In this document: one piece after another, positions 652 to 27,825 of the stretch
How positions within the stretch are numbered: position 1 is the first letter of the stretch
How the letters are laid out: each line of letters begins with the position of its first letter
Virus record (IMG/VR): IMGVR_UViG_3300020280_000115
Location: 1 to 29,648 of that record
DNA length: 29,648 nucleotides
DNA from: a virus
Lineage: Duplodnaviria > Caudoviricetes
Direction: 5' to 3' (one strand)
Program-made: the position numbers and the translations under genes
Notes under the pieces: generated by a model
What the model was told of the DNA's origin: nothing
The model's input: the letters and a program-made list of their open reading frames with translations, nothing else
Database searches by the model: none

Positions 652-1215
652 ATGGCTTTTAAGTTAATACCATATTCTGATAGATTAGATCTAACCGAAT
701 TCTACAAAACAGCCGAACGTAAAGGATTTGTCAACAATAGTTCCAAAAAAATGTTGATTGATTCTCTGTCTAAAGAAGACAGATACATGGTATGGATGTT
801 GACATGGAAAGGAAAGATTATAGGATCCACCGCGGCCCACAGTTTTCCTGAAATGGGTCCGGACAGTTTTAGAATTGCTTGTAGGATCTGCACGTTCACA
901 GAAGCATTACCAAAAGAATATCAAGTAGTTAGGACTCGTGAAACAATAAGGACACATCAAACCACAACGCAACAATTTTTCCAACCTGCTGGAATTATGT
1001 GGGCAGGATTTAACAAAAATTATTATGTAACTACAAATGAAAATGCAGAAGGCACTCAAAGGTTAGTGCATTCTATAGTGGCACCAACATTGGAAAGCAC
1101 AGGCGTCTACACAAAAATAAAAGAACTAGATTACAGAGGCACACGTCAAACCGTGTGGCGTGTAAATGCTGATTTGTATTTTAAACAACTTGCACAGGTA
1201 AAGTCATGGACTTAA
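652..1215 (+). CDS. Hypothetical protein, possible GNAT-fold acyltransferase
   Basis: 187 aa ORF; the VWMLTWKGKIIGSTAAH...FRIACRIC strand pattern resembles GNAT beta2-beta4; no canonical acetyl-CoA motif seen. Confidence 0.4.
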   Translation: MAFKLIPYSDRLDLTEFYKTAERKGFVNNSSKKMLIDSLSKEDRYMVWMLTWKGKIIGSTAAHSFPEMGPDSFRIACRICTFTEALPKEYQVVRTRETIRTHQTTTQQFFQPAGIMWAGFNKNYYVTTNENAEGTQRLVHSIVAPTLESTGVYTKIKELDYRGTRQTVWRVNADLYFKQLAQVKSWT

Positions 1216-1898
1216 CAGATTTTAAATATTATTGGAACGACGTTCCTGGTAAAGGTTTGTGTAGAAACAATTTAATTTATACAAGTCTTATAAATCATTC
1301 AAAAAGCGAATTTTGTATGTGGTTCAAACACGACTCAGAATATCATCAAGGACACGAGCAGGTTGTAGACCAAGACTTGATGGAGTCTAAATACTCAAGA
1401 GAAAAAGACTTTCTGTTGTCCTTAGATGTCGATCACAAAGACATAGTTCCAGAATTGACTAGGATAGATTCAGACAATCAAGCAATATATTTTAAAATAC
1501 AAGGAGTAGACTTTTGGGAAGAAAGCCATGGCAAGAAATATGATGAAGTGTTGCCAGACTGGGAGAAACAAATGTTGCGTATTCTAGAAAAACATAAACA
1601 ATTAGGAATATACAAATATAGTTTGCACCCTAGCAGTTATTGGGTAGTAAACAGAGAATTAAAAAATGTAAATTATTTTTTTGCATACAGAAATAATGAA
1701 CCAAATATTACCGTTAAAGATCATCTAAGTCACATATCAACAGAACGTCAAAAAGAACTAATGCCACAAATGACTAAATTAGGTATAGAAGCGGACAAGC
1801 CATATCCATTTGATAAACTTCAAATATTGTGTCTAGAAAGTTTTAGAAATGTGTACCCTGATTCATTCATAGATAAGGCAATTTCAATTTATAAGTAA
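1206..1898 (+). CDS. Protein-kinase-like fold protein with degenerate catalytic motifs
   Basis: 230 aa; REKDFL (alphaC Glu), VPELTRID, and LGIYKYSLHPSSYWVVNRELKNVNYF aligning by eye to GIxHxDLHPxN...IDF of RIO/Bud32/Kdo-type kinases. Confidence 0.45.
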   Translation: MDLTDFKYYWNDVPGKGLCRNNLIYTSLINHSKSEFCMWFKHDSEYHQGHEQVVDQDLMESKYSREKDFLLSLDVDHKDIVPELTRIDSDNQAIYFKIQGVDFWEESHGKKYDEVLPDWEKQMLRILEKHKQLGIYKYSLHPSSYWVVNRELKNVNYFFAYRNNEPNITVKDHLSHISTERQKELMPQMTKLGIEADKPYPFDKLQILCLESFRNVYPDSFIDKAISIYK

Positions 1899-1902
1899 TA
1901 GT

Positions 1903-3045
1903 ATGCAAGATACAAAAACAATCAGTCTATGTCACATATGCTATAGGCACTGCGAAGCAGAAAGAATAACAACTGCTGATGGTGTGTATCTAAACAAAAC
2001 CTGTGTAGAACACGGCAGTTCAAGTCATTTGATCGAAACAGACATCAATTTTTACAATAGTTTAGATTACGACAAGGCTGGATATAGCATACCACAAGGA
2101 GTAATGATAGAAGTCACTGACAAATGTAATCTGATGTGTCCACATTGTTATCATGGTCCAGACAATAAAACTATCGATAAACCTATTGAACAAATACTTT
2201 GGCAAATAGAAAATAGGTTTGACGCAAATGCAGGAGCGGTAATTCTTGCAGGAGCCGAACCTACGGTGAGAAAGGACTTACCAGAACTGATTCAAAGAAC
2301 AAAAGTGTTATTAAAAGAACTTAAAAGACCTGAGGATGTTTGTATTCTTACAAATGGTGTAAAACTTTCTAATAGAAAATGGACAAAGATGATTGCTGAA
2401 GCAGGAACCAATATGGTTATGATTGGTATGAACCATCAATCTTACCAAGGAGAAAAAGTGCATAAGAAACAATTACAGGCAATAGAAAATTGTAATGCTG
2501 AAGGTATATTTGTTTATTATGTTGGATACACTTTAGAAAGTTTGGATCATATGGAGGAAGTATTGGAGGAGATACAGAGTTTAGGCAATCGTGCTTGGCA
2601 ATATAGAATACGAGCAGGATCAGATATTGGAAGGTCTCCTGATGAACCTAAATTCTTTTTAAGCGACCATGTAAAACTAATCAAAAGTATTTGTGATAAA
2701 AAAGGCTGGACATGGGAAAAGAAACCTGCTGATGATAATTTATATCATTACATGGTAAACATCAACGGAATTCCACATAGAATTATACAATGGAGCGATC
2801 CAAAAACAATAGATATGGAGCAGTTGCAGTGTGGTCCTTGGTGCGACTTTGTTCCTGGCAAACCGGTGACTAATTTCTTACATCAAATAATGTTGCGTGA
2901 TGGACACGTGAACAAAGGACAACCTTTACATGACACGGTGCCACCTAAATACCTTTTCAAACCTGAGGATGTAGATTACGAAGTGAGTGAATGGACTTGG
3001 AAAAGTTGGGAAGTGTCAAAACAAAAACAAAGTACTATTGTTTAA
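1903..3045 (+). CDS. Radical SAM protein with N-terminal metal-binding ribbon (COG1964/MJ0619-Tes-like)
   Basis: CNLMCPHC (CxxxCxxC), LAGAEPTVRKDLPELI, ILTNG; N-terminal SLCHIC...KTCVEHG. Confidence 0.85.
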   Translation: MQDTKTISLCHICYRHCEAERITTADGVYLNKTCVEHGSSSHLIETDINFYNSLDYDKAGYSIPQGVMIEVTDKCNLMCPHCYHGPDNKTIDKPIEQILWQIENRFDANAGAVILAGAEPTVRKDLPELIQRTKVLLKELKRPEDVCILTNGVKLSNRKWTKMIAEAGTNMVMIGMNHQSYQGEKVHKKQLQAIENCNAEGIFVYYVGYTLESLDHMEEVLEEIQSLGNRAWQYRIRAGSDIGRSPDEPKFFLSDHVKLIKSICDKKGWTWEKKPADDNLYHYMVNINGIPHRIIQWSDPKTIDMEQLQCGPWCDFVPGKPVTNFLHQIMLRDGHVNKGQPLHDTVPPKYLFKPEDVDYEVSEWTWKSWEVSKQKQSTIV

Positions 3046-3598
3046 ATTTATAATCTAATTTAGAAGCATCCACAGTTACACTTTGAAAATACATTGTTTC
3101 GCATAACAACATATCAGCGATCCATTTAGATACAACATTTGGATCCATTTTCTCTCCTTCAAAGTCTTCTCCTAGGCGTGTATCTGTCATACCTAAAATT
3201 ACATTTAAAATATGAGGACCATATTTTTGTATGCGGTCTTCTATCATTTTGTTTTGTATTCTTTTATTGTGCCCATATCTTTCCATATCGGCATTGATAT
3301 CTTTGTAATTGTAACAGGCTTTGGAACTAATGTTTAATATCTTTTTATCTTTGTTGCCGTCCCATGCTTGTATCACTTCTTCTAATAATTTTGTTTGTCC
3401 TGAATATTCGGACCATGCATTGTTAACAAATATATCGACGTTGTTTAAACCATCTAATATTTTTTGTCTACCTTCTACGGTGTCGATATCATATCCTGTT
3501 GAAAGGCTAAAACCTTCTACGTTGTGTCCTAAGGATTTAAAATATTCGTAAAGGCTCCTGCCAAGTCCTCTGGCGTGTCCCGTTATTCGGATATTCAT
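3035..3598 (-). CDS. Short-chain dehydrogenase/reductase (SDR)
   Basis: ITGHARGLG Rossmann motif, DIFVNNA, NISS, YGHNK (YxxxK). Confidence 0.85.
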   Translation of the reverse strand: MNIRITGHARGLGRSLYEYFKSLGHNVEGFSLSTGYDIDTVEGRQKILDGLNNVDIFVNNAWSEYSGQTKLLEEVIQAWDGNKDKKILNISSKACYNYKDINADMERYGHNKRIQNKMIEDRIQKYGPHILNVILGMTDTRLGEDFEGEKMDPNVVSKWIADMLLCETMYFQSVTVDASKLDYKFKQ

Positions 3599-11891: not shown

Positions 11892-12806
11892 TTAAGTTCC
11901 CCATTTATTTCCAAATATATCTACTTGCAATCTTGGAGTGTATCGCCATCCTCTTTCCATTGCCAACTTGGCGACTCCTTGAGTGTTTAGATTATACATT
12001 TCCGATCTGCCGCCTAAAGGCATACAATATACCGGAACATTAATTCCAACAGATTGATATTCTTTTACCGCTCTGCCGACCTCATCAACGTCTGTTTGAT
12101 CAGCAACAACAAATTTAAAATATCCGTCACTGTTTGGAATATCAAAGTATGACCTAGCAACATCAGGTTTGATTGCAGTTTCCCACGGTTCGCCTGATAC
12201 GGAAAGTTTTGGAGAACAACTCCAGGTCACTTCGAATCTGTCTTGTTTACGCAAATACTCTTCGAAATCTTTGTGCAAAGGTTGTGTTGTATTTGTTTCG
12301 AAAGTTACGTTCTTTAAATCTTTCATTCTTGGATGTTCAAATAGTTCTACATAAAATCTCTGCCAACCTAGCAACGGCTCGCCACCTGTCAGAATAAAAT
12401 GTATATCTTGACCATTGGACATCGTCCACTTTTTCTCCGGAGTCAAACCTAGCACATAATCAACCACTTCATCTATTGTATGATCTTTCATATACTTTTT
12501 AAATTCTGGATAGATACTTGCATACGTATCACAACCAGTGTGAACTATAGGCAACTCCTCAAAAGTTTGAACATTTTCTAAAACATTTTCATCTAACAAT
12601 TTTTTAACCTCAGGATTGTATTTGATCCCTTGCTTTAATTTTTCTCTTCTGTTAGGATGTCTTTCCAAGCCAAAGTTCATGCATCTAAAATTACAACCAA
12701 ATGTTCGCAAGAACACGGAAGGAACTCCTACAAATTTTCCTTCTCCTTGTACAGAATAAAATGCTTCACTGTACCTCAGTCTTTGATTGTGTAGTCTACT
12801 AGTCAT
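11892..12806 (-). CDS. queE: 7-carboxy-7-deazaguanine synthase QueE (radical SAM)
   Basis: EAFYSVQGEG, VFLRTFGCNFRC...GCDT, LTGGEP, FETN, SPKLS, KFVV, PRLQ; adjacent to folE. Confidence 0.92.
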   Translation of the reverse strand: MTSRLHNQRLRYSEAFYSVQGEGKFVGVPSVFLRTFGCNFRCMNFGLERHPNRREKLKQGIKYNPEVKKLLDENVLENVQTFEELPIVHTGCDTYASIYPEFKKYMKDHTIDEVVDYVLGLTPEKKWTMSNGQDIHFILTGGEPLLGWQRFYVELFEHPRMKDLKNVTFETNTTQPLHKDFEEYLRKQDRFEVTWSCSPKLSVSGEPWETAIKPDVARSYFDIPNSDGYFKFVVADQTDVDEVGRAVKEYQSVGINVPVYCMPLGGRSEMYNLNTQGVAKLAMERGWRYTPRLQVDIFGNKWGT

Positions 12807-13473
12807 GTCCTTTCATACTCAAACAGATATCATAAAACTCTTTTTTCAATGGAGCGTGTTTATCGAATGCACCCAATAATATAGCAGTTGTCATATCTGA
12901 TTCATGTTCTCTAACACCTCTCTGTGTCATGCAGTGATGTTCTGCCTTAATCAATACTGCCACATTAGGAGTCTTTGCATATTTCTGTAATGCTTCTGCA
13001 ATTTGCGTTGTCATCTCTTCTTGTATCTGTGGACGTTCTGCAATATGATGAACTATCCTGTTAAATTTAGAAAGTCCTATAACTTCTTTTTCTGGAAGTA
13101 TACCTACCCAGCATTTTCCTACAATGTTCTGAAAGTGGTGGGCACACGTGGACTTCACACTAATCGGACCGCTAGTGTATAAACTTCTATATCCCATATT
13201 GGGAAATGATGTGACCTTAGGTGGATTTACAAATCTTCCTGCAAATATTTCATTAATATACATTTTTGCGACACGTCTTGCAGTCTCTTTAGTGTTGTGA
13301 TCATTTTCAGTATCAATCACCAAAGAATCCAAAACATCGCCAAACGAATCTTCTACTTCCTTTTGTAATTCTCCTAGTTCGCCTTGTTCAATATAATCAC
13401 TGATGTTGTCATTACTGTGAAATCGTACGCCTTTTTCTTTAAGCCTCTGCCTAATCTTTTCTGATGTTTTCAT
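12799..13473 (-). CDS. folE: GTP cyclohydrolase I
   Basis: ETARRVAKMY, STCAHHF, IGLSKFNR, RPQIQE, HHCMTQRGV. Confidence 0.96.
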   Translation of the reverse strand: MKTSEKIRQRLKEKGVRFHSNDNISDYIEQGELGELQKEVEDSFGDVLDSLVIDTENDHNTKETARRVAKMYINEIFAGRFVNPPKVTSFPNMGYRSLYTSGPISVKSTCAHHFQNIVGKCWVGILPEKEVIGLSKFNRIVHHIAERPQIQEEMTTQIAEALQKYAKTPNVAVLIKAEHHCMTQRGVREHESDMTTAILLGAFDKHAPLKKEFYDICLSMKGHD

Positions 13474-13686
13474 TTAATCCTTCTTAATAATTTTTTCTAA
13501 AACTTCGATCTGCTCTACATACTTTCCTATATGGTTGATTTCCTTACCAATGCTTTCAAGGATATCAGTATGTTCGCCAACGCCGACTGCATTTTTCATA
13601 TAAACTTCAACATTTGTTTTATGTTTTGCAATCTGACCTTCTGCGTGTTTTACCAGAGCGTCAAATATCATTTGTCTAGTTGCCAT
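13474..13686 (-). CDS. Hypothetical phage protein
   Basis: 70 aa ORF with AGGAGG RBS. Confidence 0.75.
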   Translation of the reverse strand: MATRQMIFDALVKHAEGQIAKHKTNVEVYMKNAVGVGEHTDILESIGKEINHIGKYVEQIEVLEKIIKKD

Positions 13687-13709
13687 AACATTTCCTCCTA
13701 GTTGTTATA

Positions 13710-14312
13710 TTAACAAATTTTAGCCAATTTGTCAATGATTTGATTGTAAACAATTTGGTTTCCTTCCTCCGAATAATGGTTTGCCGTTCCCTTATACTTA
13801 GGCCAGGTCTTACTCAAATTCAAAATATTATCTTCTTTTGCGTAAAAATTGGATATATCAAAATGATCTATTGCCAAATATGGAATTGGTATAAATTTTT
13901 TAATTTCGCTTCTGATCATATTGTAGATGTCAATTGCGTATTCATCGTCATAGTGATGATGGAACCAATTTTTGGCAGTGCGTAATCTTGGATTGAACCA
14001 ATCAAATTTATCCATTATGTCTGTGTAAATTAGATCACAATTCTTGTGCAATCCTTCTTTGTGTACTGGGTGTTTTGGTGTGTGTATCCTGCTTGGACTT
14101 GTATGACACACAATCACGCAATCATAGTTGTTTACCCAATATGCATCTGTGGCACTTAGGTTCCACAGTTGTTTCAATATTTTGTATTCACCAACTCCTG
14201 CCTGTGCAATATTATTCACTGCATGATTCTTTGCCAACATCAAAGGCCAACCTTCTCCAGTGGGCCATTCGCAACCAAAACTGTCTCCTGCCAATACTAT
14301 CCTTTTAGCCAT
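13710..14312 (-). CDS. SGNH/GDSL-like hydrolase or acyltransferase
   Basis: LAGDSF block I, NIAQAGVG block II, ANHYSEEGN block V. Confidence 0.7.
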   Translation of the reverse strand: MAKRIVLAGDSFGCEWPTGEGWPLMLAKNHAVNNIAQAGVGEYKILKQLWNLSATDAYWVNNYDCVIVCHTSPSRIHTPKHPVHKEGLHKNCDLIYTDIMDKFDWFNPRLRTAKNWFHHHYDDEYAIDIYNMIRSEIKKFIPIPYLAIDHFDISNFYAKEDNILNLSKTWPKYKGTANHYSEEGNQIVYNQIIDKLAKIC

Positions 14313-15112
14313 GACAGATACTCCTTTGCGACCAGGTCGTGATATTTTTTATTGAAATGTTCATTGTCTTCTAAGAAATAATCTTCTGCTTTGTGTCCTA
14401 ATGTATTTAGATGGTCTTCGACACTCTTCTCTGCTCTCTTCAGTGTTTTAATTTTACCAAAATATTCGAAGTTGTTGGGCCATATACCTCTGCTTCTAAA
14501 ATTGAATACGTACAACTTGGCGTTGTGTTCTGCACAAATATTGTCCCAAGCATATGCATTCAATAAGAATTCTCTCTTTTCTAATGTTGTATTACACTCA
14601 TTGAAAAGTTTTACCTGCATATAGGAATCTTTTCTTAAGTCAGGCTCTTCCAAACCTCCTTCATTTGTAAATTTAAAACCTTTAGCATTATTATAATCTT
14701 CTGCTGTAGGCTTTGTCAATATTTGAACTGTGTCTCCTGCTATAGGTTGATCAGAATATTTTTTAATCATGTCAGTGGATTGTGGATGTTCTATAGTGAA
14801 ATGATCAACTGGCTCTGCTTCTTGCTTTAATTTTCCATCGAAACTTATAACCATTCTATTCAATGGAGCAAGACACAAGAATACTTCGTCTATGTCATTG
14901 TGTTTTTCAAAGGAAGTTTTCAACCAGTTTGTGTACAGACTGTTAGTTGCTCCTGGCTGTGCATATATGACAATAGGCTTATCGTGTATTTTTGAATACG
15001 TTTCACAATAGTTGTTGTCGTTCCAGAATGAATAACTGCCCGGACCTACCTTTCCTTCAATTGTTTGATATCCGACTGTATGGCTGTCACCTATAAAAAG
15101 TGTTCTACTCAT
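14297..15112 (-). CDS. SGNH/GDSL-like hydrolase or acyltransferase
   Basis: FIGDSHT block I, AQPGATN block II, EDNEHF (DxxH) block V. Confidence 0.72.
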   Translation of the reverse strand: MSRTLFIGDSHTVGYQTIEGKVGPGSYSFWNDNNYCETYSKIHDKPIVIYAQPGATNSLYTNWLKTSFEKHNDIDEVFLCLAPLNRMVISFDGKLKQEAEPVDHFTIEHPQSTDMIKKYSDQPIAGDTVQILTKPTAEDYNNAKGFKFTNEGGLEEPDLRKDSYMQVKLFNECNTTLEKREFLLNAYAWDNICAEHNAKLYVFNFRSRGIWPNNFEYFGKIKTLKRAEKSVEDHLNTLGHKAEDYFLEDNEHFNKKYHDLVAKEYLSWLKG

Positions 15113-15488
15113 TTTTTGTGTAATCCCCTTTGCCTGGTATAACGTTTCTTACACCGCCTTTAGGATTCTCACAATCGCCATCTTTTCTAGGAATAAGATG
15201 CACGTGTGGATACATCACTGTTTGTCCTGCGGCTTCGCCAACATTTATTCCAATGTTGTAACCTTGTATTACGCCTTTCGCAATATTATCATTTCCGATT
15301 TTAATTGCAAGTTCAACACATCTAATAATTCTTTCCTGTGTTGCTTCTTTAGGCACAATTAAACTGTGTCCTTCTGTGACAGGATATCCGTCATTGTACC
15401 ACACCATATCTTTGAAATCATATACGACATCGCTCCAAGGTGCTCTACCTTCTTTCTTCGCTTGTTCTAATGTATCAACTTTTATCAT
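15105..15488 (-). CDS. HIT-family nucleotide hydrolase (likely start MIKVD)
   Basis: YPVTEGHSLIVPK, NVGEAAGQTVMYPHVHLIPR; GGAGG RBS 7 nt before ATG 15488. Confidence 0.9.
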   Translation of the reverse strand: MIKVDTLEQAKKEGRAPWSDVVYDFKDMVWYNDGYPVTEGHSLIVPKEATQERIIRCVELAIKIGNDNIAKGVIQGYNIGINVGEAAGQTVMYPHVHLIPRKDGDCENPKGGVRNVIPGKGDYTKNE

Positions 15489-15940
15489 TACCATTCCTCC
15501 CAAGGAAAAACAATCCAACACGGCAACACATCTTTGTCTATACCGTAGCAGTAGTAATTTAATTTATCGAACTTGCTGGGTGCATTGTGTATGATTGCGG
15601 CAGTTCTTACTCTGTCTTCACCACCAAAATTCTTATTGATGTAATTAAATGTTTCACCAGTGTCATTTATATCATCTATAATCAATATCTTCTTTTGAAA
15701 TGCGTATGCTTTTTCTAAATTTCTAAGATCAGGTTTTGCCTTATGATCTCTTAATCTTACGTCCAATGCTTCATGAGGTTTGTTCAGTCTGTGACTGAGA
15801 TATATTCCAGGTATGCAACCACCTCTGTTTATCCCCATAATCACGTCCGGTTCCCATTTGTCTTCAGCCATTCTATCTGCAATTTTTTCTAATGCGTTAC
15901 GGACCTGTATCATTGTGAAATATTGTTTATTAACAGTCAT
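15488..15940 (-). CDS. Purine phosphoribosyltransferase (Gpt-like)
   Basis: GINRGG, PRPP loop ILIIDDINDTGET, C-terminal WIVFPWE. Confidence 0.88.
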   Translation of the reverse strand: MTVNKQYFTMIQVRNALEKIADRMAEDKWEPDVIMGINRGGCIPGIYLSHRLNKPHEALDVRLRDHKAKPDLRNLEKAYAFQKKILIIDDINDTGETFNYINKNFGGEDRVRTAAIIHNAPSKFDKLNYYCYGIDKDVLPCWIVFPWEEW

Positions 15941-16332
15941 TAATATTTTTCCTCATCTGGATTTTTAGAAACGTAATCATTGTAACAAATTCTCCATATG
16001 TTCCTAAATTTATCATACGCAATTTTTAAACTTGGATATTCTTCACACAGTTCATCAATCTTTGCTAACGTTGGCACAGAGTTTTCAAAAGGTTTAGGCA
16101 CATTGTAATCTTCAAAAGTCATGTTTTCAAAACCCTTGCCTGCATCTTGCCTCATCATGTCTCCCATGTCCACAGTGCCTACACTGCCACTGCCACTGCC
16201 TTCTCCATAACTTACAGTGAATCCTTCCGCAGGTGTTGACCAACCATCAAATGTTCCGCTCTCTGGCACCACGTAAGTTACGTTGTCTTCTTTAGAGACA
16301 ATTTTCTTTTCTGAATCCTCGTCTTTGCCCAT
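15940..16332 (-). CDS. Hypothetical acidic protein
   Basis: 130 aa ORF coupled on both sides by TAATG overlaps. Confidence 0.7.
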   Translation of the reverse strand: MGKDEDSEKKIVSKEDNVTYVVPESGTFDGWSTPAEGFTVSYGEGSGSGSVGTVDMGDMMRQDAGKGFENMTFEDYNVPKPFENSVPTLAKIDELCEEYPSLKIAYDKFRNIWRICYNDYVSKNPDEEKY

Positions 16333-16895
16333 TAATATAACTCTTCAATCTTATCACAAATTTTTAGTTTCAATGCATCTTTGGCATCTAACCAAACATC
16401 CTGCGGTGGTAAAAGTATTTCTCTAATTTGTTTCTCACTCATTCCTATACACTTTTTATAATGGTTAATCATTCTTCTTGTGCTGAGTTCGAACTCTTTA
16501 ACACGAGCAAATAGTTCGTGTTCTTTACCTTCACTGCCCCAACTGTATTGGTGTGATAATATTGAAGTGTTCGGAGTCAAAATCCTTTTTCCTTTTGCAC
16601 CTGCAATGAATAATAAGAATCCACAACTAGCAATAAGTCCTAGTCCAACAGTCTTTATTGGTATTGTACTTGCTTTCATTGTATCTATTAAAGCAAATGC
16701 GGCGTGTACGTCTCCGCCTGGTGAATTTATTATGAGTGTTAGTTGTGGCAATCTATTTTCCGATAGATTGTGATTCATTATCCACTTAATTACATCTCTG
16801 CATGAATCTGTGTTGATGTCATCCATTAGCACATAAATTCCGTTGGATGCCAAATTGTTTGTAGGCGTGTTGTTGTTGCTTTGCTTTTTAGCCAT
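16332..16895 (-). CDS. clpP: ClpP-like serine protease (likely start MAKK)
   Basis: INSPGGDV, GLIASCG (nucleophile Ser), LSHQ (His), DVWLDA; GGAG RBS. Confidence 0.88.
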   Translation of the reverse strand: MAKKQSNNNTPTNNLASNGIYVLMDDINTDSCRDVIKWIMNHNLSENRLPQLTLIINSPGGDVHAAFALIDTMKASTIPIKTVGLGLIASCGFLLFIAGAKGKRILTPNTSILSHQYSWGSEGKEHELFARVKEFELSTRRMINHYKKCIGMSEKQIREILLPPQDVWLDAKDALKLKICDKIEELY

Positions 16896-17964
16896 TTGAT
16901 ATAACTCCATATAGTTGATTTCCTGAAAAGAATGTATCTTTCAATTTGTCTTTTTGTTTATAGATTAAAGGAATATACTTTTTATAATTTTCCATATAAT
17001 CTTCAATTTTAGCAATTAGTTTTTTCTTGTTTGCCAAATAGTTTTGCCAATCTTCAGTCCATATACTTGGATAAGCAAATTCTGGGATAGCCATTTCGCT
17101 ATAACTTAATCTGTCTGGAACCATAGGGATCACATCTAATAATGCTCCCTCATACCAACTTATACCTAATGTTTCTTGTAAGTTTGCACTGAATATCATT
17201 TTAGCACTGCCTAATAGATTGTGATATTCATTTTTACTTAAAGCCTTTTCTTGGCATACAACAAATTCATATTGCGGCATCGCTTGTTTTAAATCATTGA
17301 ATATGGCAGGTTGTTTTTCAGGAGCCATTCTGTGTGGAAACAAAATTATATCTTTCTTATCCATATTCTTATATAAACTTAAAGTTGGTTCCATATATTC
17401 CATAGGCCAACCTACTCTTGATATTTTTGTTGTTGGTCCTGGATTTAAACCTAAATATTTTCCTGCTTCTGGAAATGCTTCTGTAAACATATTGATATGG
17501 AACTCTGTTGCATAGAAATTGTGATCAAATACATCGAACATTGCACGTTCAGTATTTCTAACCCAATCTGCATCTCCAATTAATCTTCCTAGGAAGTCTT
17601 GTGGATCATATGAACCGGCGTGCCACATACCGCCTATTTTAATTTTTACATTTAACAATTCAGCCATATATTTTAATTGCAATACAGTCGGATTCCAAGC
17701 GTCTGTGTAAAGGAAATAATCACCGTCTTTCACTTTACCCTCACAGAACATTGCGCCTATCTTTTCCATTTGTGCAGACTTGTAGACGTTTGTTCCACCA
17801 AAGTTTAGAAAAGCACCTGGAGTTGTTGCTTGAGGCGTGTCACCTCCGCTTATTGTTACCACGTTTTGATTAGTCGCACGTCTCATTTGTTTAGGAAGAT
17901 GCTCTTTCCATTCTTTTGTGTATCTTGTATCTACTGCTTCTAAATCAACTATGTATATTGTCAT
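16888..17964 (-). CDS. GT-B fold glycosyltransferase (GT4-like)
   Basis: FPHRMAPEKQP and QETLGISWYE (Ex7E) donor-binding motifs; PMVPDRLSYSEM. Confidence 0.8.
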   Translation of the reverse strand: MTIYIVDLEAVDTRYTKEWKEHLPKQMRRATNQNVVTISGGDTPQATTPGAFLNFGGTNVYKSAQMEKIGAMFCEGKVKDGDYFLYTDAWNPTVLQLKYMAELLNVKIKIGGMWHAGSYDPQDFLGRLIGDADWVRNTERAMFDVFDHNFYATEFHINMFTEAFPEAGKYLGLNPGPTTKISRVGWPMEYMEPTLSLYKNMDKKDIILFPHRMAPEKQPAIFNDLKQAMPQYEFVVCQEKALSKNEYHNLLGSAKMIFSANLQETLGISWYEGALLDVIPMVPDRLSYSEMAIPEFAYPSIWTEDWQNYLANKKKLIAKIEDYMENYKKYIPLIYKQKDKLKDTFFSGNQLYGVISNG

Positions 17965-18128
17965 TTTTCTTCGTAATATCCTAACACTGCCAAACCAATA
18001 AAAAAGAACGATGCGAACATAAACATATCGCTCACGAACTCATCTCCACCGGGTAAACCAGGCATTGGCATAAACCAAGCGAAGCCTACGAGACAGATAC
18101 CTCCTATTGTTCCAAATAGTAACCACAT
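17961..18128 (-). CDS. Small membrane protein (likely start MWLLF)
   Basis: Two hydrophobic segments; ATG at 18128 avoids overlap with the upstream gene. Confidence 0.6.
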   Translation of the reverse strand: MWLLFGTIGGICLVGFAWFMPMPGLPGGDEFVSDMFMFASFFFIGLAVLGYYEEK

Positions 18129-18132
18129 AATT

Positions 18133-18510
18133 CTACTTTGTGTAGACTGTGTGACTTCCGTTTTCACCATCTTCACTAACATCTATTTCAATATCTCTAT
18201 CAGGATATCTTTTGTTTATTTCAGTGTATAAATCATCACTTATCATTTCGCAAGATTTATAATCTAATTGTAAAGTTTTTTCTGCATACAATTTCTCTAA
18301 CCATCTCTTGAATTGAATAAACTCTATATCTCTGTCATCATGGAATACTTCTATTCCTACTTTGAAATGAAAGATGTGTCTGTGAGGATAGCCAAGAAAT
18401 GAAACATCATATTCATCACCAGTTGCTAGTTTTGGATCATCCAACGCCGCTGGATATTTGTGAATACCTTCTTTTCTAAATGTTACCCATATATTTGTTT
18501 TTTTATTCAT
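18133..18510 (-). CDS. QueD/PTPS-like T-fold protein (LxxxHRHxF, DpdL-type)
   Basis: EGIHKYP, FLGYPHRHIFHF, IEFI, SCEM, VSEDGENG; lacks the QueD CxxxHGH motif. Confidence 0.8.
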   Translation of the reverse strand: MNKKTNIWVTFRKEGIHKYPAALDDPKLATGDEYDVSFLGYPHRHIFHFKVGIEVFHDDRDIEFIQFKRWLEKLYAEKTLQLDYKSCEMISDDLYTEINKRYPDRDIEIDVSEDGENGSHTVYTK

Positions 18511-18515
18511 ATATT

Positions 18516-18544
18516 ATTATAGCAATTTTAGTCGTCGTTGTCAA
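18516..18544 (-). promoter_or_regulatory. Consensus sigma70 promoter with extended -10
   Basis: TTGACA-N17-TATAAT with TGn before the -10; only 5 nt separate it from ATG 18510. Confidence 0.85.
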
Positions 18545-19040
18545 CGTCAATTACCGTATCTCCTACATATTCAGACCAATCAGTGTAGTGCATATGTTCT
18601 GTGATCTGTTTTAAGTTTTTACTCCAAACACCTGTGTTTGAATGTCCCCACGTCACATCATCAATTTTCAGTGTTGTGTTTTTATTCAACTTGTATATGT
18701 TTGGTATTTTAGCACTTACCATTGGAATGAATCTTTCATATTTCATTAGTCCTGTATCTGTCACTGTTTCGATATATTCTATACCAAAGTCTAGGGTCAC
18801 CCAGTACTTGTCTTCTAATAATTCCTGTATCACAGTCTTAAATTTTTCGTTGCCATCATAACTTTGACTTGTTCCAAAGTATATGTGTTTGCAATTATGA
18901 TGATCAGCCAGGTCTTTTATTTCTTTTGAGTCCCGTGTGCCAACAACAAAAAGTGTTCTAAAACCTTTTGCTATTGTATTTTCTATTTCATCACCAACGA
19001 AGTATACAACTTGTTTTCTTTTGTTTGTGTCTAAAGCCAT
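18528..19040 (-). CDS. Hypothetical protein in the deazaguanine locus
   Basis: 170 aa alpha/beta-looking ORF (TLFVVG, HIYFG, KIDD, GVWS). Confidence 0.8.
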   Translation of the reverse strand: MALDTNKRKQVVYFVGDEIENTIAKGFRTLFVVGTRDSKEIKDLADHHNCKHIYFGTSQSYDGNEKFKTVIQELLEDKYWVTLDFGIEYIETVTDTGLMKYERFIPMVSAKIPNIYKLNKNTTLKIDDVTWGHSNTGVWSKNLKQITEHMHYTDWSEYVGDTVIDVDNDD

Positions 19041-19933
19041 TCAATATATCCTCTGTTATAACCTGGCATTCTTTGATTGCCTTCTTTGAAAGCATCTTGC
19101 CATTCTGTTTCTCTCTCATATCCTTTGCTCCAAAATCCGCTTATATCTAACGCACCTGTTTCAATCATTTTTACTGCCATCTTCATACATCTTTGAAAAT
19201 CTTTTTGTCTTGGACTTGGAAATATCACTGTTGCCGCATTCCATAATAGTTTGTCAAACGTTGTTGTGATGCCATTTGATTTTTCAGCACCCAGCACTAC
19301 CAAACCCTGTGGCATTACTAAATCTTGTTTGAATACTTCATCTCTTGTGTTAAGATCAACAACTATATCATAAGGTCCATCTACCTTGTCTTTTAATTTG
19401 TCTTCCCACAGTTCTTTGTTGCTACTGCCTAACACATCCACATCAAAGAAATAATGTGCATTTAGATATTGATATACTACCCATGCTAGAAAACCACTGC
19501 CAATTATTAAAAGTTTAGCACCTTTAACATTACGTTTTTCAAATTGCATTTCATCTTGCATAACAACATTTAAACCACAAGCCACTGGTTCAATGATGTA
19601 TTTAGGGTCAAGCCTTGGAACTTTTACATAAGTTCCTGCACGGGCATTGTATTCATCTGCGTATGCAGGCTCTCCTCTTGTTGCAACTAAATCTCCTTCT
19701 TGCACGTCTTTCACATCTTTACCACACTCTAGCACTTCGCCAAGTCCTTCATGTCCTTGCATTTCCAATGGTAAAGGACCAAACTTTCCATTCATCATAT
19801 CTATGTCACTTCTGCACACACCAGTCATTTTTGCCTGTACACGTATTTCATTGTCTTTTATGTCTGGCAATTCGAATTCTTTTTCTGCAAAAGAACCATT
19901 ACCTTCAGTGTAAAGTATTTTCACGGTCTTCAC
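19031..19933 (-). CDS. Zn-dependent medium-chain (polyol/sugar) dehydrogenase
   Basis: GVCRSD, GHEGLGEV, IEPVACG, IIGSGFLA; lacks the four-Cys structural Zn lobe. Confidence 0.88.
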   Translation of the reverse strand: MKTVKILYTEGNGSFAEKEFELPDIKDNEIRVQAKMTGVCRSDIDMMNGKFGPLPLEMQGHEGLGEVLECGKDVKDVQEGDLVATRGEPAYADEYNARAGTYVKVPRLDPKYIIEPVACGLNVVMQDEMQFEKRNVKGAKLLIIGSGFLAWVVYQYLNAHYFFDVDVLGSSNKELWEDKLKDKVDGPYDIVVDLNTRDEVFKQDLVMPQGLVVLGAEKSNGITTTFDKLLWNAATVIFPSPRQKDFQRCMKMAVKMIETGALDISGFWSKGYERETEWQDAFKEGNQRMPGYNRGYIEWL

Positions 19934-20816
19934 TTAATAACTCCTGTATCCATAAATCTATTTCTATTTGTTTGCTCCAAAACATTTCATCTTCTTGATG
20001 TATAATTGCATTACGTATCATTTCCTTGTATGCATTTTCAGGACATAATCCTAATTGCACTGATTCGCCATTGCTTTCTCCATTTTTATAAAAATGCATA
20101 GCAACATCATCTCCAAACGGACTTTTCCAACTTGCCATCAATATAAAAGTTTTATCACCATTGGATAAGACCATTTCCGTTTGATCGGGCACATTGTATA
20201 CTCCATCCTTGTTTATCTTTCCATAATCAGTGCTAGTGCAATCTTTCAATGTATATTTTTGTTCTGTTGTAAATTTTTTTACACTATAATCTTTGTATGT
20301 CGGTCCAGCCATTGCAACAAATAAACTTATTAGATGTGGCAGTAGATCCTTTTCTACTCCTCCCATTGCAAATTTTTTATCTGTAAACCAAGTACCAGGA
20401 TTGGGTATCCTATCCTTATTGATCCAGTTTATTTGTATGACATCGCTTGTTAATGACCTGTCATACATCTCTTTGATGTTATCACGCCACATATTGTTTT
20501 TTGTCATCATAAATTTTGTAGGTTTGTTTAGATTGTTTAATATACGCCAATGATTTGTTGATTCAACTCCTGGCTTTTCTATAAAAACAATTTTCGTATG
20601 TGGAGCAACTTTCTGTGCTATCTTGAAATGCAAATGGTTAGGCACACAAATATGAGCAGTATCAAATGGACTGTGTGTTGCTAGAGCAGTTGTTAATTCA
20701 ATAAAGTCGGCTTTTTTAGATTGATCTCTGTCCACAGTGATTACGTCATGCCCCATACCTGTAAGGACATCCTTGTATAACTGACCAAATCCCATACCAA
20801 CTATTAAACTTTTCAT
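19905..20816 (-). CDS. Gfo/Idh/MocA-family oxidoreductase
   Basis: IVGMGFG, ICVPNHLH, FIEKPG, GGVEKDLLPH. Confidence 0.88.
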   Translation of the reverse strand: MKSLIVGMGFGQLYKDVLTGMGHDVITVDRDQSKKADFIELTTALATHSPFDTAHICVPNHLHFKIAQKVAPHTKIVFIEKPGVESTNHWRILNNLNKPTKFMMTKNNMWRDNIKEMYDRSLTSDVIQINWINKDRIPNPGTWFTDKKFAMGGVEKDLLPHLISLFVAMAGPTYKDYSVKKFTTEQKYTLKDCTSTDYGKINKDGVYNVPDQTEMVLSNGDKTFILMASWKSPFGDDVAMHFYKNGESNGESVQLGLCPENAYKEMIRNAIIHQEDEMFWSKQIEIDLWIQELLSEDRENTLH

Positions 20817-21010
20817 CTTTCTATCGATCTTTTCATATTATCCAATTGTGTTTTTAAAAACAATTTAATTTTTTTAAATTTTACTAATATGTGTTTACCG
20901 TCCCAACTTCTGTCATAGTCACGTTCTGCTTCCATTTCTACAACTTTCTTTTTGTACCAGTCGTATTCTTTCTGCACTGCCTTTATCTTTTTACTTCGTA
21001 CTTTTGCCAT
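20813..21010 (-). CDS. Small basic hypothetical protein (likely start MAKV)
   Basis: GAGGAGG RBS before ATG 21010. Confidence 0.65.
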   Translation of the reverse strand: MAKVRSKKIKAVQKEYDWYKKKVVEMEAERDYDRSWDGKHILVKFKKIKLFLKTQLDNMKRSIER

Positions 21011-21011
21011 A

Positions 21012-22487
21012 TTATACCTCCTCGAATAAGTTTCCAAATTGTGTAGAAGCATTCACAGTTTTCTTACCTGTTGCTCCTCTTGTTCCTATAATTGACATCC
21101 AGAATCTACTAAACTCTTCAATGACTGCGTTTGCCTCATCTCTATCGCTTGTGGCAAATATTGCATTTACAATATCTTTAAATGCAATCCTATCAAACTT
21201 TTCTTCTACTAACATATGAGGATTGATTCCTTTGTCATATGCTTCATTGGCTTCTTGCACTGCCTTGATATGCATCCAAACATTGTGCGCCATTTGTAGT
21301 GTGTAACTAAAACTATCCCAACTTGTTTTAGGATCATTTTTCATTTTGTTTAAATCACCTGGATTGTAGCAAGTAATATCTTTCAACATTAATCTTTCAC
21401 TTACAGGACTATCTCTAAATGCAGGAAATATGCCTTTGTCTAATACAGCCTCTTTAAATGGTCTAGTATCTTTTGCAAATGCTTTGTCATCTGCACTAGG
21501 CATCATTCTATAGACCCATTTCTTTTTGTCCTTAATTTCTATATCTGTGTACACTTGTCCATTTGCACTTGCTAGGAAAGGACTTGCACAATCAAATGTA
21601 ATCATAAAGTTTTCATTATGATACTTTCTAATTGCTCTTTGTACATCTGTCAATAGCACTGCCCATTCCAATTTACTTGTACCTAAGAAGTGCATTACAT
21701 CATGTTTGCCTTTTTCAAGCAATCCATCAAATCTTAATGCAACCAAACGTTTTAGTGCCAAATGTATATCGCACATATTTTGTCCGCCCATTGCCCAACC
21801 GTTGAAGTGATCTGTATATTTCTTAGGATCACAATAATCTTTCATTTGAAGATACCAATCATCTGCTTGTTGGAAGTTTTCGCCTTGAAGCACATTTAAG
21901 AACTTGCAATTACCATTTCTGTTCTTCATAAAGTAATCATTGTTTATTCTTGTGCCATCAACTGCTTCTTGATAAGAATTGATATTACTTGCTTTTGCGC
22001 CTTGAGGAGACCGCGACACCCAAGCGGGAATATCAAGTATCATACCATAGTCCATATTTCCGTCCATGAACTCAAGCACCTGTTCTCTTTTCTTTTTGGC
22101 TTTAGGACAAGTTGGATCTTTCCAATCTCCTTCCCAAACACCTTTACCAATCTGGAAACCACCCGAATCACCTAGCACCCAATTATCTTTTCTATCTCTG
22201 TTTCTTATGATATCATCTCTCACAGAAAAGTGTTTCATATTCAAGTCGGCGTGTCCTGCCGAATATAAATGCCACTTGTAATAGAAATAAGTGTCCTTTG
22301 GTTTCATATAGTTTAAACCTTCAACGCCATGTTCAAAGTTTTGCGGAACTCTCTTAGGCAAGATGTAATCTTCTTCATGCCTTGCCTTACCTAAGTCCCT
22401 AGCAAAGAAACTGCTCATAGCAGGAAGGAACGTTGCGTAATCCTTCTGCTTGTCAGTTAAACTATCTGTTGGTATCTTCTTATCCAT
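21012..22487 (-). CDS. dpdA: DpdA (DpdA2-like) 7-deazaguanine DNA transglycosylase, TGT fold
   Basis: LGDSGGFQ, MILDIP, NVLQG, GWAMGG, HFLG, TFDCASPF TGT motifs; co-located with folE/queE in a phage replication region. Confidence 0.85.
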   Translation of the reverse strand: MDKKIPTDSLTDKQKDYATFLPAMSSFFARDLGKARHEEDYILPKRVPQNFEHGVEGLNYMKPKDTYFYYKWHLYSAGHADLNMKHFSVRDDIIRNRDRKDNWVLGDSGGFQIGKGVWEGDWKDPTCPKAKKKREQVLEFMDGNMDYGMILDIPAWVSRSPQGAKASNINSYQEAVDGTRINNDYFMKNRNGNCKFLNVLQGENFQQADDWYLQMKDYCDPKKYTDHFNGWAMGGQNMCDIHLALKRLVALRFDGLLEKGKHDVMHFLGTSKLEWAVLLTDVQRAIRKYHNENFMITFDCASPFLASANGQVYTDIEIKDKKKWVYRMMPSADDKAFAKDTRPFKEAVLDKGIFPAFRDSPVSERLMLKDITCYNPGDLNKMKNDPKTSWDSFSYTLQMAHNVWMHIKAVQEANEAYDKGINPHMLVEEKFDRIAFKDIVNAIFATSDRDEANAVIEEFSRFWMSIIGTRGATGKKTVNASTQFGNLFEEV

Positions 22488-26552: not shown

Positions 26553-26795
26553 CTAACGCAAATAAAATAACATTATACCGCCTATTCCGGTAATTGTCAA
26601 TACTGCATTTGTAGTTATCAGTGCCGGCTCTTTCCAAATCACCGAAACGACTAACCAAATTACTCCTCCTAGTGCTAGAAGCATTGGACCTATCGGGTAA
26701 AGATGAGGAAATCCTGCATTAACGAAAGTTCCTACAATTAAAGTAAATGTAGCAACCCATTTTAAAATTTGATCAATTTTGTTCATACTTGTCAA
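26553..26795 (-). CDS. Small membrane protein
   Basis: 80 aa with about three hydrophobic segments. Confidence 0.75.
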   Translation of the reverse strand: MTSMNKIDQILKWVATFTLIVGTFVNAGFPHLYPIGPMLLALGGVIWLVVSVIWKEPALITTNAVLTITGIGGIMLFYLR

Positions 26796-27825
26796 ATACT
26801 CTGTTGATTACATTGTTCACTCTTACAAAGTGAGCCGCCTTAGGCATATCTTTAATTCGTCTTGCTCCTATATAAGTGCAAGTGCTTCTTACTCCACCTA
26901 AAATTTGTTCAACAGTGTCTTTGACTGGGCCTTTATCCTTCAATGTAACTGTCTTGCCTTCTACGCCTCTGTATCCGTCTTTTCTTTGTCCGTGTGTGTT
27001 CAATGCTGTTTGTGATGCCATTCCATAAAAAACTCTCTTGCCGTCTTGCAATTCTAATTCTGATTCGTCGTGTCCTGCTAACATACCTCCAAGCATTACA
27101 AAATGTGCACCGCCACCTAATGCTTTGGAAACGTCTCCTGGTTGTGTACAACCACCATCTGCAATAATGTGTCCACCAACTCCATTAGCGGCATCTGAAC
27201 ATTCCATTATTGCCGAAAATTGCGGAACACCTACTCCTGTCTGCGTCCTTGTGGTACACACACTACCTGGACCAATTCCAACTTTAACTATGTCTGCACC
27301 TTTTATAATTAATTCTTCTGTCATATTAGGTGTGACTACATTTCCAGCAATTATAATTTTATCTGGATATTCTGTTCTAATTTTTGTAACAAAGTCTACA
27401 AATGATTCGTGATAGGCATTAGCAACATCAATTGTGATACAAGGTATATCAGGAAATGCTGACATCACTTGTTTAAGTGTTTGATAATCATGTGCGTTCT
27501 CGTCCCATATAGCACCCGTTCCAACACAGGCAGAAACGTATTTAAATTTTAATCCTGTGCCTGCGGCTTGTTTCCAATCATCTAGATTATAATGCTTTCT
27601 AATTACCGTGAGCATTTTGTATTCTTGTAAAACTCTCGCCATTGAAAATGTGCCTACTCCATCCATGTTACTAGCCATAATAGGAACATATGACAATTCT
27701 TTTCCACTGTTTCTAAATTTGAATTTTCTCAAGATATCAACATCACGTCTAGAACTTAAAGTTGATCTTTTAGGATGTAATAAAACGTCTGAATAATCTA
27801 AATGTATATTGTAATCAATTCTCAT
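26773..27825 (-). CDS. guaC: GMP reductase
   Basis: LDYSDVLLHPKRSTLSSR, SNMDGVG, DVANAY, KVGIGPGSVCTTR, IADGG, FYGMAS, YRGVEGK. Confidence 0.95.
   Translation of the reverse strand: MRIDYNIHLDYSDVLLHPKRSTLSSRRDVDILRKFKFRNSGKELSYVPIMASNMDGVGTFSMARVLQEYKMLTVIRKHYNLDDWKQAAGTGLKFKYVSACVGTGAIWDENAHDYQTLKQVMSAFPDIPCITIDVANAYHESFVDFVTKIRTEYPDKIIIAGNVVTPNMTEELIIKGADIVKVGIGPGSVCTTRTQTGVGVPQFSAIMECSDAANGVGGHIIADGGCTQPGDVSKALGGGAHFVMLGGMLAGHDESELELQDGKRVFYGMASQTALNTHGQRKDGYRGVEGKTVTLKDKGPVKDTVEQILGGVRSTCTYIGARRIKDMPKAAHFVRVNNVINRVFDKYEQN

Follow-up and report, generated by a model that had tools for sequence, protein, structure and literature searches.

The window analysed here is the whole of IMG/VR virus record IMGVR_UViG_3300020280_000115 (Caudoviricetes; 29,648 nucleotides), a 29.6-kb piece of a large T4-like jumbo phage with genes for a B-family polymerase, a clamp and an RNase H-like nuclease. 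Between the polymerase/clamp and RNase H-like genes, at positions 11892-22487, lies a gene run that is very likely a deazaguanine DNA locus. It represents a genuine version of the DpdL deazaguanine system that is widespread and has a glycosyltransferase (GT) as a fixed addition; the sugar chemistry is putative. Sister fragments measure 105-165 kb and are rated 30-47% complete, from which a genome of approximately 350 kb is estimated.

The run holds 17 open reading frames (ORFs) of at least 70 amino acids (aa), all on the minus strand, as are the other genes of the run described below. An initial annotation had named 12 of them, all of which were found in their places on that strand, and had passed over five, including a ClpP protease gene. 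It had read the run as one co-oriented, coupled unit that might make a new hypermodified base. The shared orientation is true but nothing special, as the minus strand carries almost every long ORF between 3035 and 29639, and the set that stays constant from one sister locus to the next is limited to dpdA, a gene for a 170-aa protein, dpdL, the GT gene, folE and queE. The confirmed module is smaller than the locus first proposed, and its deazaguanine core, although real, is an already described gene set, namely DpdA plus DpdL (PMC10516641).

The window encodes FolE (GTP cyclohydrolase I; 12799-13473; PF01227, E 8e-46) and the radical SAM enzyme QueE, a CDG (7-carboxy-7-deazaguanine) synthase (11892-12806; phrog_2076, E 2e-49), the latter with C38-x3-C42 and, after an insertion, C92; TIGR QueE models score below cut-off. 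FolE, QueD and QueE make CDG by an established pathway. QueD itself is not in the 29.6-kb fragment, as the 125-aa T-fold protein first called QueD-like (18133-18510) lacks the QueD catalytic cysteine and carries LGYPHRHIF at residues 39-47, which fits the DpdL signature LxxxHRHxF. Although it has no family match as a single sequence, this QueD paralogue shares 59% identity with the DpdL of phages ACP17 and PA5oct and 32.5% with that of phage phiST. A QueD family member was found in 3/4 sister fragments and in phage Paride, lying more than 40 kb from the module in the closest fragment. DpdL is the predicted CDG decarboxylase of a QueC-less route to 2'-deoxy-7-deazaguanine (dDG) (Cui et al., 2023; PMC10516641). 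The initial annotation was right that QueC and QueF are missing from the window, with no match among its 45 proteins. Nor was QueC matched in the four viral sister fragments, each only 30-47% complete, or over the cut-off in the five complete cultured genomes with the GT; a fifth relative searched is a host assembly, in which QueC lies on different contigs.

The 491-aa protein at 21012-22487 is the long DpdA-family DNA transglycosylase of the module. Enzymes of this family are known to exchange guanine in DNA. As a single sequence it had no family match, PDB sequence searches were not significant, and the best PDB row of its profile, an archaeosine tRNA-guanine transglycosylase (TGT), reached a non-significant E of 0.64. 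The call was upheld instead by homology to the PA5oct/Paride protein (33.6% identity, E 1e-65) and by D107-SGG-Q, D152, Q201-G202, H266-LG and D299, which are invariant in 20 DpdA sequences with identity down to 22% and which we take to correspond to the TGT catalytic residues. It is not a phiST-like short DpdA3, having 491 aa rather than ~260-290 and DSGG rather than DN(G/S); in hhalign its profile gave 19% (weak) against the short type and 96% against the ACP17/BUDD DpdA2 type, the closer of the two. In Paride, dpdA is followed by the GT gene and then by the T-fold gene (dpdL), with queE six genes further. This order fits the PA5oct accessions for DpdA3, DpdL and QueE (PMC10516641 Data S1), so the PA5oct genes were matched by order, and gene order and accession spacing suggest that the orthologue of the window DpdA is QCG76197, the DpdA3 of that table. 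The PA5oct/Paride Wroclawviruses and ACP17 are listed as DpdA plus DpdL phages (PMC10516641), a deazaguanine system in PA5oct has also been noted (PMC7824862), and PA5oct DNA resists five restriction enzymes, which was read as modified G in a GA/GG context (PMC12191111).

Linkage of the glycosyltransferase to dpdA

The GT (16888-17964) likewise had no family match as a single sequence, with PF00534 in 9/24 family members, below cut-off, and its identification was sustained by structure. An AlphaFold model from 122 sequences (predicted local distance difference test 95.7) has a two-Rossmann GT-B fold, and the best Foldseek matches were BshA (E 9e-10, template modelling score 0.57-0.66), glycogen synthase, GlgM, PimA and MshA. 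The donor-binding motif E264-x7-E272 is conserved across the 122 sequences. The model, confident in its fold, indicates a GT4-like retaining glycosyltransferase.

Sister loci were the best 80 of 295 IMG/VR loci recovered with DpdA (70-100% DpdA identity, some near-duplicates), and those with at least 1.5 kb beyond dpdL were treated as informative for the GT. The co-occurrence with dpdA put forward in the initial annotation held throughout for the GT, which was found in 57/57 informative sister loci and beside dpdA in 17/17 distant loci; it held in part for the two oxidoreductases (39/75) and failed for the SGNH-like genes, one of which (SG271) was not found in Paride, Phosso or ACP17. The distant loci come from GTDB assemblies, which yielded 26 GT loci: nine have the appearance of phage contigs and keep the same gene layout, and the other 17 have dpdA within 1.5 kb in varied order and strand. 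Among cultured phages, Paride and ACP17 have the GT gene flanked by dpdA and dpdL, and Phosso, BUDD, BCSR5 and BUCT-ZZ01 have it beside them. A YhhQ/Vut_1 deazaguanine importer gene adjoins in all four distant bacterial GT-dpdA loci tested, and dpdL was found in four distant bacterial loci and in 3/5 genomes searched, next to an integrase-like ORF. The GT thus probably belongs to the deazaguanine locus: locus counts across relatives mark it as core, the redox pair as optional and the SGNH-like genes as likely passengers. Both families are huge, with at least 7,979 DpdA and at least 8,000 GT clusters among 8,000 candidates scored.

The alphaproteobacterial yhhQ-GT-dpdA islands (L094-L110) also hold a conserved ~590-aa protein and a two-component pair, and adjoin defence genes (EcoRI-type methylase, GmrSD-HNH, nSTAND3 and OLD-like ATPases); they are possible bacterial DNA modification or defence islands.

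DpdL matches were obtained in 28 cultured records from 13 lineages. Seven lineages carry the GT (the Wroclawviruses, Phosso, ACP17, BUDD, X1, BCSR5 and BUCT-ZZ01), and it is absent from the whole genomes of phiST, RHph_I1_18, Ahp1, D479, Bakedbeans and MA9V-3, with positive controls detected in 4/4 cases. Five of these six GT-less phages have a short DpdA domain, none being identified in Bakedbeans. In a tree of 25 DpdA sequences, the five short ones were split from the 20 GT-linked ones by a 100/99 branch, with the window on the GT-linked side, whereas the DpdL sequences are not sorted by presence of the GT (5 changes; 313/500 shuffles as low). phiST, which encodes FolE, QueD, QueE, DpdL and DpdA, has 100% dDG in its DNA (PMC10516641). 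However, since phiST has no GT and a different, short DpdA, that measurement does not settle the base of the GT-type phages.

In four of the GT-less phages a nucleotide-kinase-like gene adjoins the short dpdA (phiST L112:9326-10586, L120:7342-8609, L115:7429-8879 and L118:7692-9094). The phiST gene CGPG_00066 matches AAA_18, the Ahp1 kinase-like gene matches DNMK, and phiST also has a MazG gene. The kinase beside the short dpdA hints at full dDG replacement at the nucleotide level before replication, contrary to Cui et al., who propose that all such modifications are post-replicative (PMC10516641).

Other genes around dpdA change from one relative to the next, which suggests variable tailoring. 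The slots hold epimerase, UDP-glucose dehydrogenase, 2-oxoglutarate-Fe oxygenase or class III aminotransferase genes (L054:8311-9066, L050:7271-8014, L056:11746-12336, L066:10805-12082, L089:9080-10324). In BCSR5 and in Xanthomonas phage PhiXhv-16 the GT has a gene for a PIG-L N-acetylhexosamine deacetylase close by, which points to real sugar chemistry. In BUDD (L114:2894-5621) and BCSR5 (L117:8261-11201), genes for proteins resembling phosphoadenosine phosphosulfate reductase and PIG-L deacetylase stand directly upstream of GT-dpdA, and in Synechococcus phage BUCT-ZZ01 (L119:4370-8527) two GT4-like genes flank dpdA-dpdL, a candidate for a disaccharide.

Proposed mechanism and alternatives

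We propose that the DpdA-DpdL module replaces part of the phage G with 7-deazaguanine and that the GT attaches to this base a sugar that shields the DNA from host nucleases, a reading that we judge to have an even chance; the presence of a sugar-bearing 7-deazaguanine in the final base is just as finely balanced. FolE and QueE, with QueD encoded elsewhere, would make CDG (the genes are seen, QueD in relatives only), which DpdL would convert to 7-deazaguanine, as Cui et al. predict. Judging from its motifs and the PA5oct digests, the long DpdA would swap 7-deazaguanine for G at some motifs after replication, and the GT would supply a sugar from a nucleoside diphosphate sugar. We slightly prefer that this sugar is attached on the C7 side while the base is still free, ahead of its insertion into DNA. 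This is favoured because the GT is acidic and nearest to small-molecule GT4 enzymes, because of the importer-GT-dpdA islands, and because of the precedent of HuiG, the glycosyltransferase of the huimycin pathway. C7 is favoured over N2 because a sugar at N2 would presumably clash with the invariant D152 pocket, given the TGT mechanism. Three linkages come into question: the sugar might be bound as a C-glycoside at C7, as an acyl glycoside of CDG or, as in huimycin, as a glycoside at N2.

Several observations weigh against this mechanism. 7-Deazaguanine offers no hydroxyl handle, and no conserved handle-making gene was found. The T4 DNA glucosyltransferases are absent among the listed structural neighbours of the GT (ranks to 50, with gaps), and the GT family is acidic, with a median isoelectric point of 5.7. 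DpdA plus DpdL from phiST or ACP17 gave no dDG in E. coli (PMC10516641), so that even the core step is putative, and nucleoside analysis of any GT-bearing phage was not found in the literature covered. The sister loci, at the identities given above for the best 80 of 295, are close kin; the division among DpdA sequences counts as a single event, in a tree for which most GT-positive sequences were chosen via the GT. Outside the tree, Vibrio phage 2.275.O combines a window-type DpdA with QueF and an amidoligase-like gene and has no GT. Finally, the distant GT of PhiXhv-16 lies in a sugar cluster ~94 kb from a weak DpdA-like match.

The Vibrio phage 2.275.O locus (L209:5911-12937) consists of the long dpdA followed by amidoligase-like, QueF, YhhQ, queuosine, aminohydrolase and FolE genes, a candidate source of an acylated preQ1 base, and shows that the gene beside this DpdA type changes with the pathway. 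The PhiXhv-16 cluster (L210:3669-7755) holds glucosamine-6-phosphate synthase, PIG-L deacetylase, the distant GT homologue and a Gfo gene in one run; it links the family of the GT with amino-sugar chemistry and with a Gfo partner, yet also shows it away from a dpdA neighbourhood.

Part of this evidence could be accommodated if the phage made plain dDG, as phiST does, and the GT acted on a virion protein, the host surface or another base, being only a long-standing neighbour. The 100% dDG of phiST, with FolE, QueD, QueE, DpdL and DpdA (PMC10516641), a GT4-like fold of no basic character, the PhiXhv-16 homologue away from dpdA and the clear passengers within the run, such as clpP, would all suit such an arrangement. 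We nevertheless consider it unlikely, as GT and dpdA remain neighbours across bacterial islands and unrelated families of phages, in differing gene orders and on differing strands, and as phiST is without the GT and has a different DpdA. A similarly low probability attaches to a GT-fold enzyme that works in the pathway while the final base is sugarless, either by activating or shuttling an intermediate or through a small C7 group made with the 170-aa QueE-like protein. The same linkage data and the small-molecule GT4 neighbours fit that scheme, the QueE-like fold lead for the 170-aa protein would gain a role, and the failure of DpdA plus DpdL alone in E. coli (PMC10516641) would be explained. 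However, the E-x7-E donor motif is retained across the 122 sequences, genes for sugar-nucleotide enzymes (epimerase, UDP-glucose dehydrogenase and deacetylase) turn up repeatedly close to the module, and the 170-aa gene was undetected in 4/5 GT-bearing cultured genomes.

Far less likely are a role in tRNA modification and the production of a free, glycosylated deazapurine metabolite of the huimycin or tubercidin kind, in either case without action on DNA. The phosphoribosyltransferase (PRT) gene and a gene for an inosine monophosphate dehydrogenase (IMPDH)/GMP reductase at 26773-27825 do echo the tubercidin cluster, and archaeosine TGT was the best, if non-significant, PDB row of the DpdA profile. 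Yet the IMPDH/GMP-reductase gene is clade-limited, polymerase/clamp and RNase H-like genes flank the module, modified G occurs in PA5oct DNA (PMC12191111), and the metabolite clusters are without transglycosylases (10.64898/2026.04.15.718813).

Accessory genes of the run

The calls for folE, queE, the HIT, PRT and Zn-dehydrogenase genes and the Gfo/Idh/MocA gene were backed by Pfam, PHROGs or NCBIfam. The Gfo/Idh/MocA oxidoreductase (Gfo; 19905-20816; PF01408, E 2e-5) has an intact EKP motif, and the Zn-dependent medium-chain dehydrogenase (MDR; 19031-19933; PF08240, E 4e-12) has C40 and G60-H61-E62 intact. This pair is an optional part of the module, found in 39/75 dpdA-anchored loci. When the MDR was used as anchor (best 80 of 448 matches, with 41 mostly already-seen contigs excluded), Gfo accompanied it in all 39 remaining loci, along with dpdA in 36, dpdL in 36, the 170-aa gene in 34, the GT in 33 and the SGNH-like genes in 11 and 10; one locus has the pair without the module. 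The MDR was not found in four fragments of the subclade lacking it, and among cultured phages it occurs in 11 Wroclawvirus records only. In Paride the Gfo-MDR-170-aa triple lies 28 kb from dpdA, and the Zn ligands and the EKP motif are gone. That the pair changes the sugar by oxidation and reduction is a tentative proposal, with rather less than an even chance of being right.

The 170-aa protein (18528-19040) is encoded in 71/71 sister loci with dpdL, and was not detected in 4/5 GT-bearing cultured genomes or in the distant GT-dpdA loci of bacterial assemblies. A weak fold lead to a QueE-like partial TIM barrel suggests that it may be related to QueE in fold while lacking the cluster. In place of the three cluster cysteines of radical SAM enzymes it has a single, non-conserved cysteine. 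The 79-aa accessory protein between dpdA and Gfo (20813-21052) has no family match and is encoded in 56/75 loci.

The remaining genes are probably passengers. ClpP (16332-16910; PF00574, E 8e-31) overlaps the GT gene and was found in 26/31 loci reaching queE. The purine PRT-like gene (15488-15940; PF00156, E 2e-12) is present in 31/31 such loci, with a similar gene near dpdL in Paride and BUCT-ZZ01 and none annotated in the ACP17 or BUDD regions. The HIT hydrolase gene (15105-15521; PF01230, E 7e-11) had no tblastn match in five cultured-phage regions. Two genes had been called SGNH proteins, SG271 (14297-15112) and a second at 13710-14312; both genes are present, in 27/31 and 25/31 loci reaching queE respectively, but neither matched the SGNH family, and the assignment stands on motifs picked out by eye (GDS block I and a C-terminal DxxH) together with a lead to DUF6071. 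The latter comes from the Atlas cluster of SG271, with DUF6071 on 38% of members, and the gene was found in 1/5 genomes searched. It is very improbable that these proteins acylate the base, as had been suggested.

Elsewhere in the window, three plus-strand genes at 652-3598, the last encoding a radical SAM protein that bears an HMPTM zinc ribbon, face a gene resembling short-chain dehydrogenases/epimerases. The IMPDH/GMP-reductase gene lies upstream of the polymerase and is mostly confined to the closest clade. CpG and TpA are both under-represented across the window (0.61 and 0.76 observed/expected).

Relation to known systems and significance

The closest characterised system, the DpdL-type dDG system of phiST, resembles that of the window in having FolE, QueE, DpdL and a DpdA-family enzyme and, as far as the fragments and genomes searched show, no QueC, with QueD in the relatives of the window. 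It differs in its 259-aa DpdA with DN(G/S), its P-loop kinase-like and MazG genes, its lack of a GT and its full replacement of G, whereas the window has a 491-aa DpdA with DSGG and an attached GT and 170-aa gene. PA5oct/Paride and ACP17 share an orthologous dpdA-GT-dpdL-queE set, to which Paride adds Gfo, MDR and the 170-aa gene, although there the triple is remote and its catalytic residues are lost. No discussion of the GT was found in PMC10516641, with 'glycosyl' appearing once in its supplement, in a synthesis protocol, and all eight deazaguanines from DNA in Cui et al. bear small C7 groups (PMC10516641). The literature searched, which did not extend to subscription articles or bioRxiv supplements, yielded no report of DNA with a glycosylated deazaguanine.

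A phage precedent for base glycosylation involves a pyrimidine. The alpha- and beta-glucosyltransferases of T4 glycosylate 5-hydroxymethylcytosine, an acceptor with a hydroxyl handle, against restriction. Like the window GT they are GT-B enzymes that, in the role proposed here, place a sugar on a modified phage base; unlike it they use a pyrimidine acceptor, and they are not among its listed fold neighbours. Huimycin offers a parallel on the purine side, as HuiG adds N-acetylglucosamine to a free 7-deazapurine base (10.64898/2026.04.15.718813), which is the reaction type proposed for the module. However, huimycin is a secreted metabolite built on preQ0 without a transglycosylase, and the likeness drawn here is one of function.

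Taken as a whole, the picture may be one of two kinds of DpdL phage: those in which a short DpdA and a kinase lead to plain dDG, and those in which a long DpdA and a GT4 enzyme lead to glycosylated 7-deazaguanine. The second kind would occur in a very abundant group of aquatic jumbo phages, in therapy-candidate Pseudomonas phages and in mobile bacterial islands; the optional Gfo/MDR pair would vary the sugar, and a QueE paralogue without the cluster would assist. We hold this full scheme to be plausible, though somewhat short of an even chance. It offers a testable answer to which modified G is present in PA5oct/Paride and to why no dDG formed when E. coli expressed only DpdA plus DpdL, and a sugar-bearing guanine substitute can be tested for in cultured Pseudomonas phages. 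If true, glycosyl hypermodification would extend from pyrimidines to purines and, because the DpdA/GT family is huge, the modified base would be a common one in aquatic viral DNA, affecting nuclease defence and possibly metagenome library bias.

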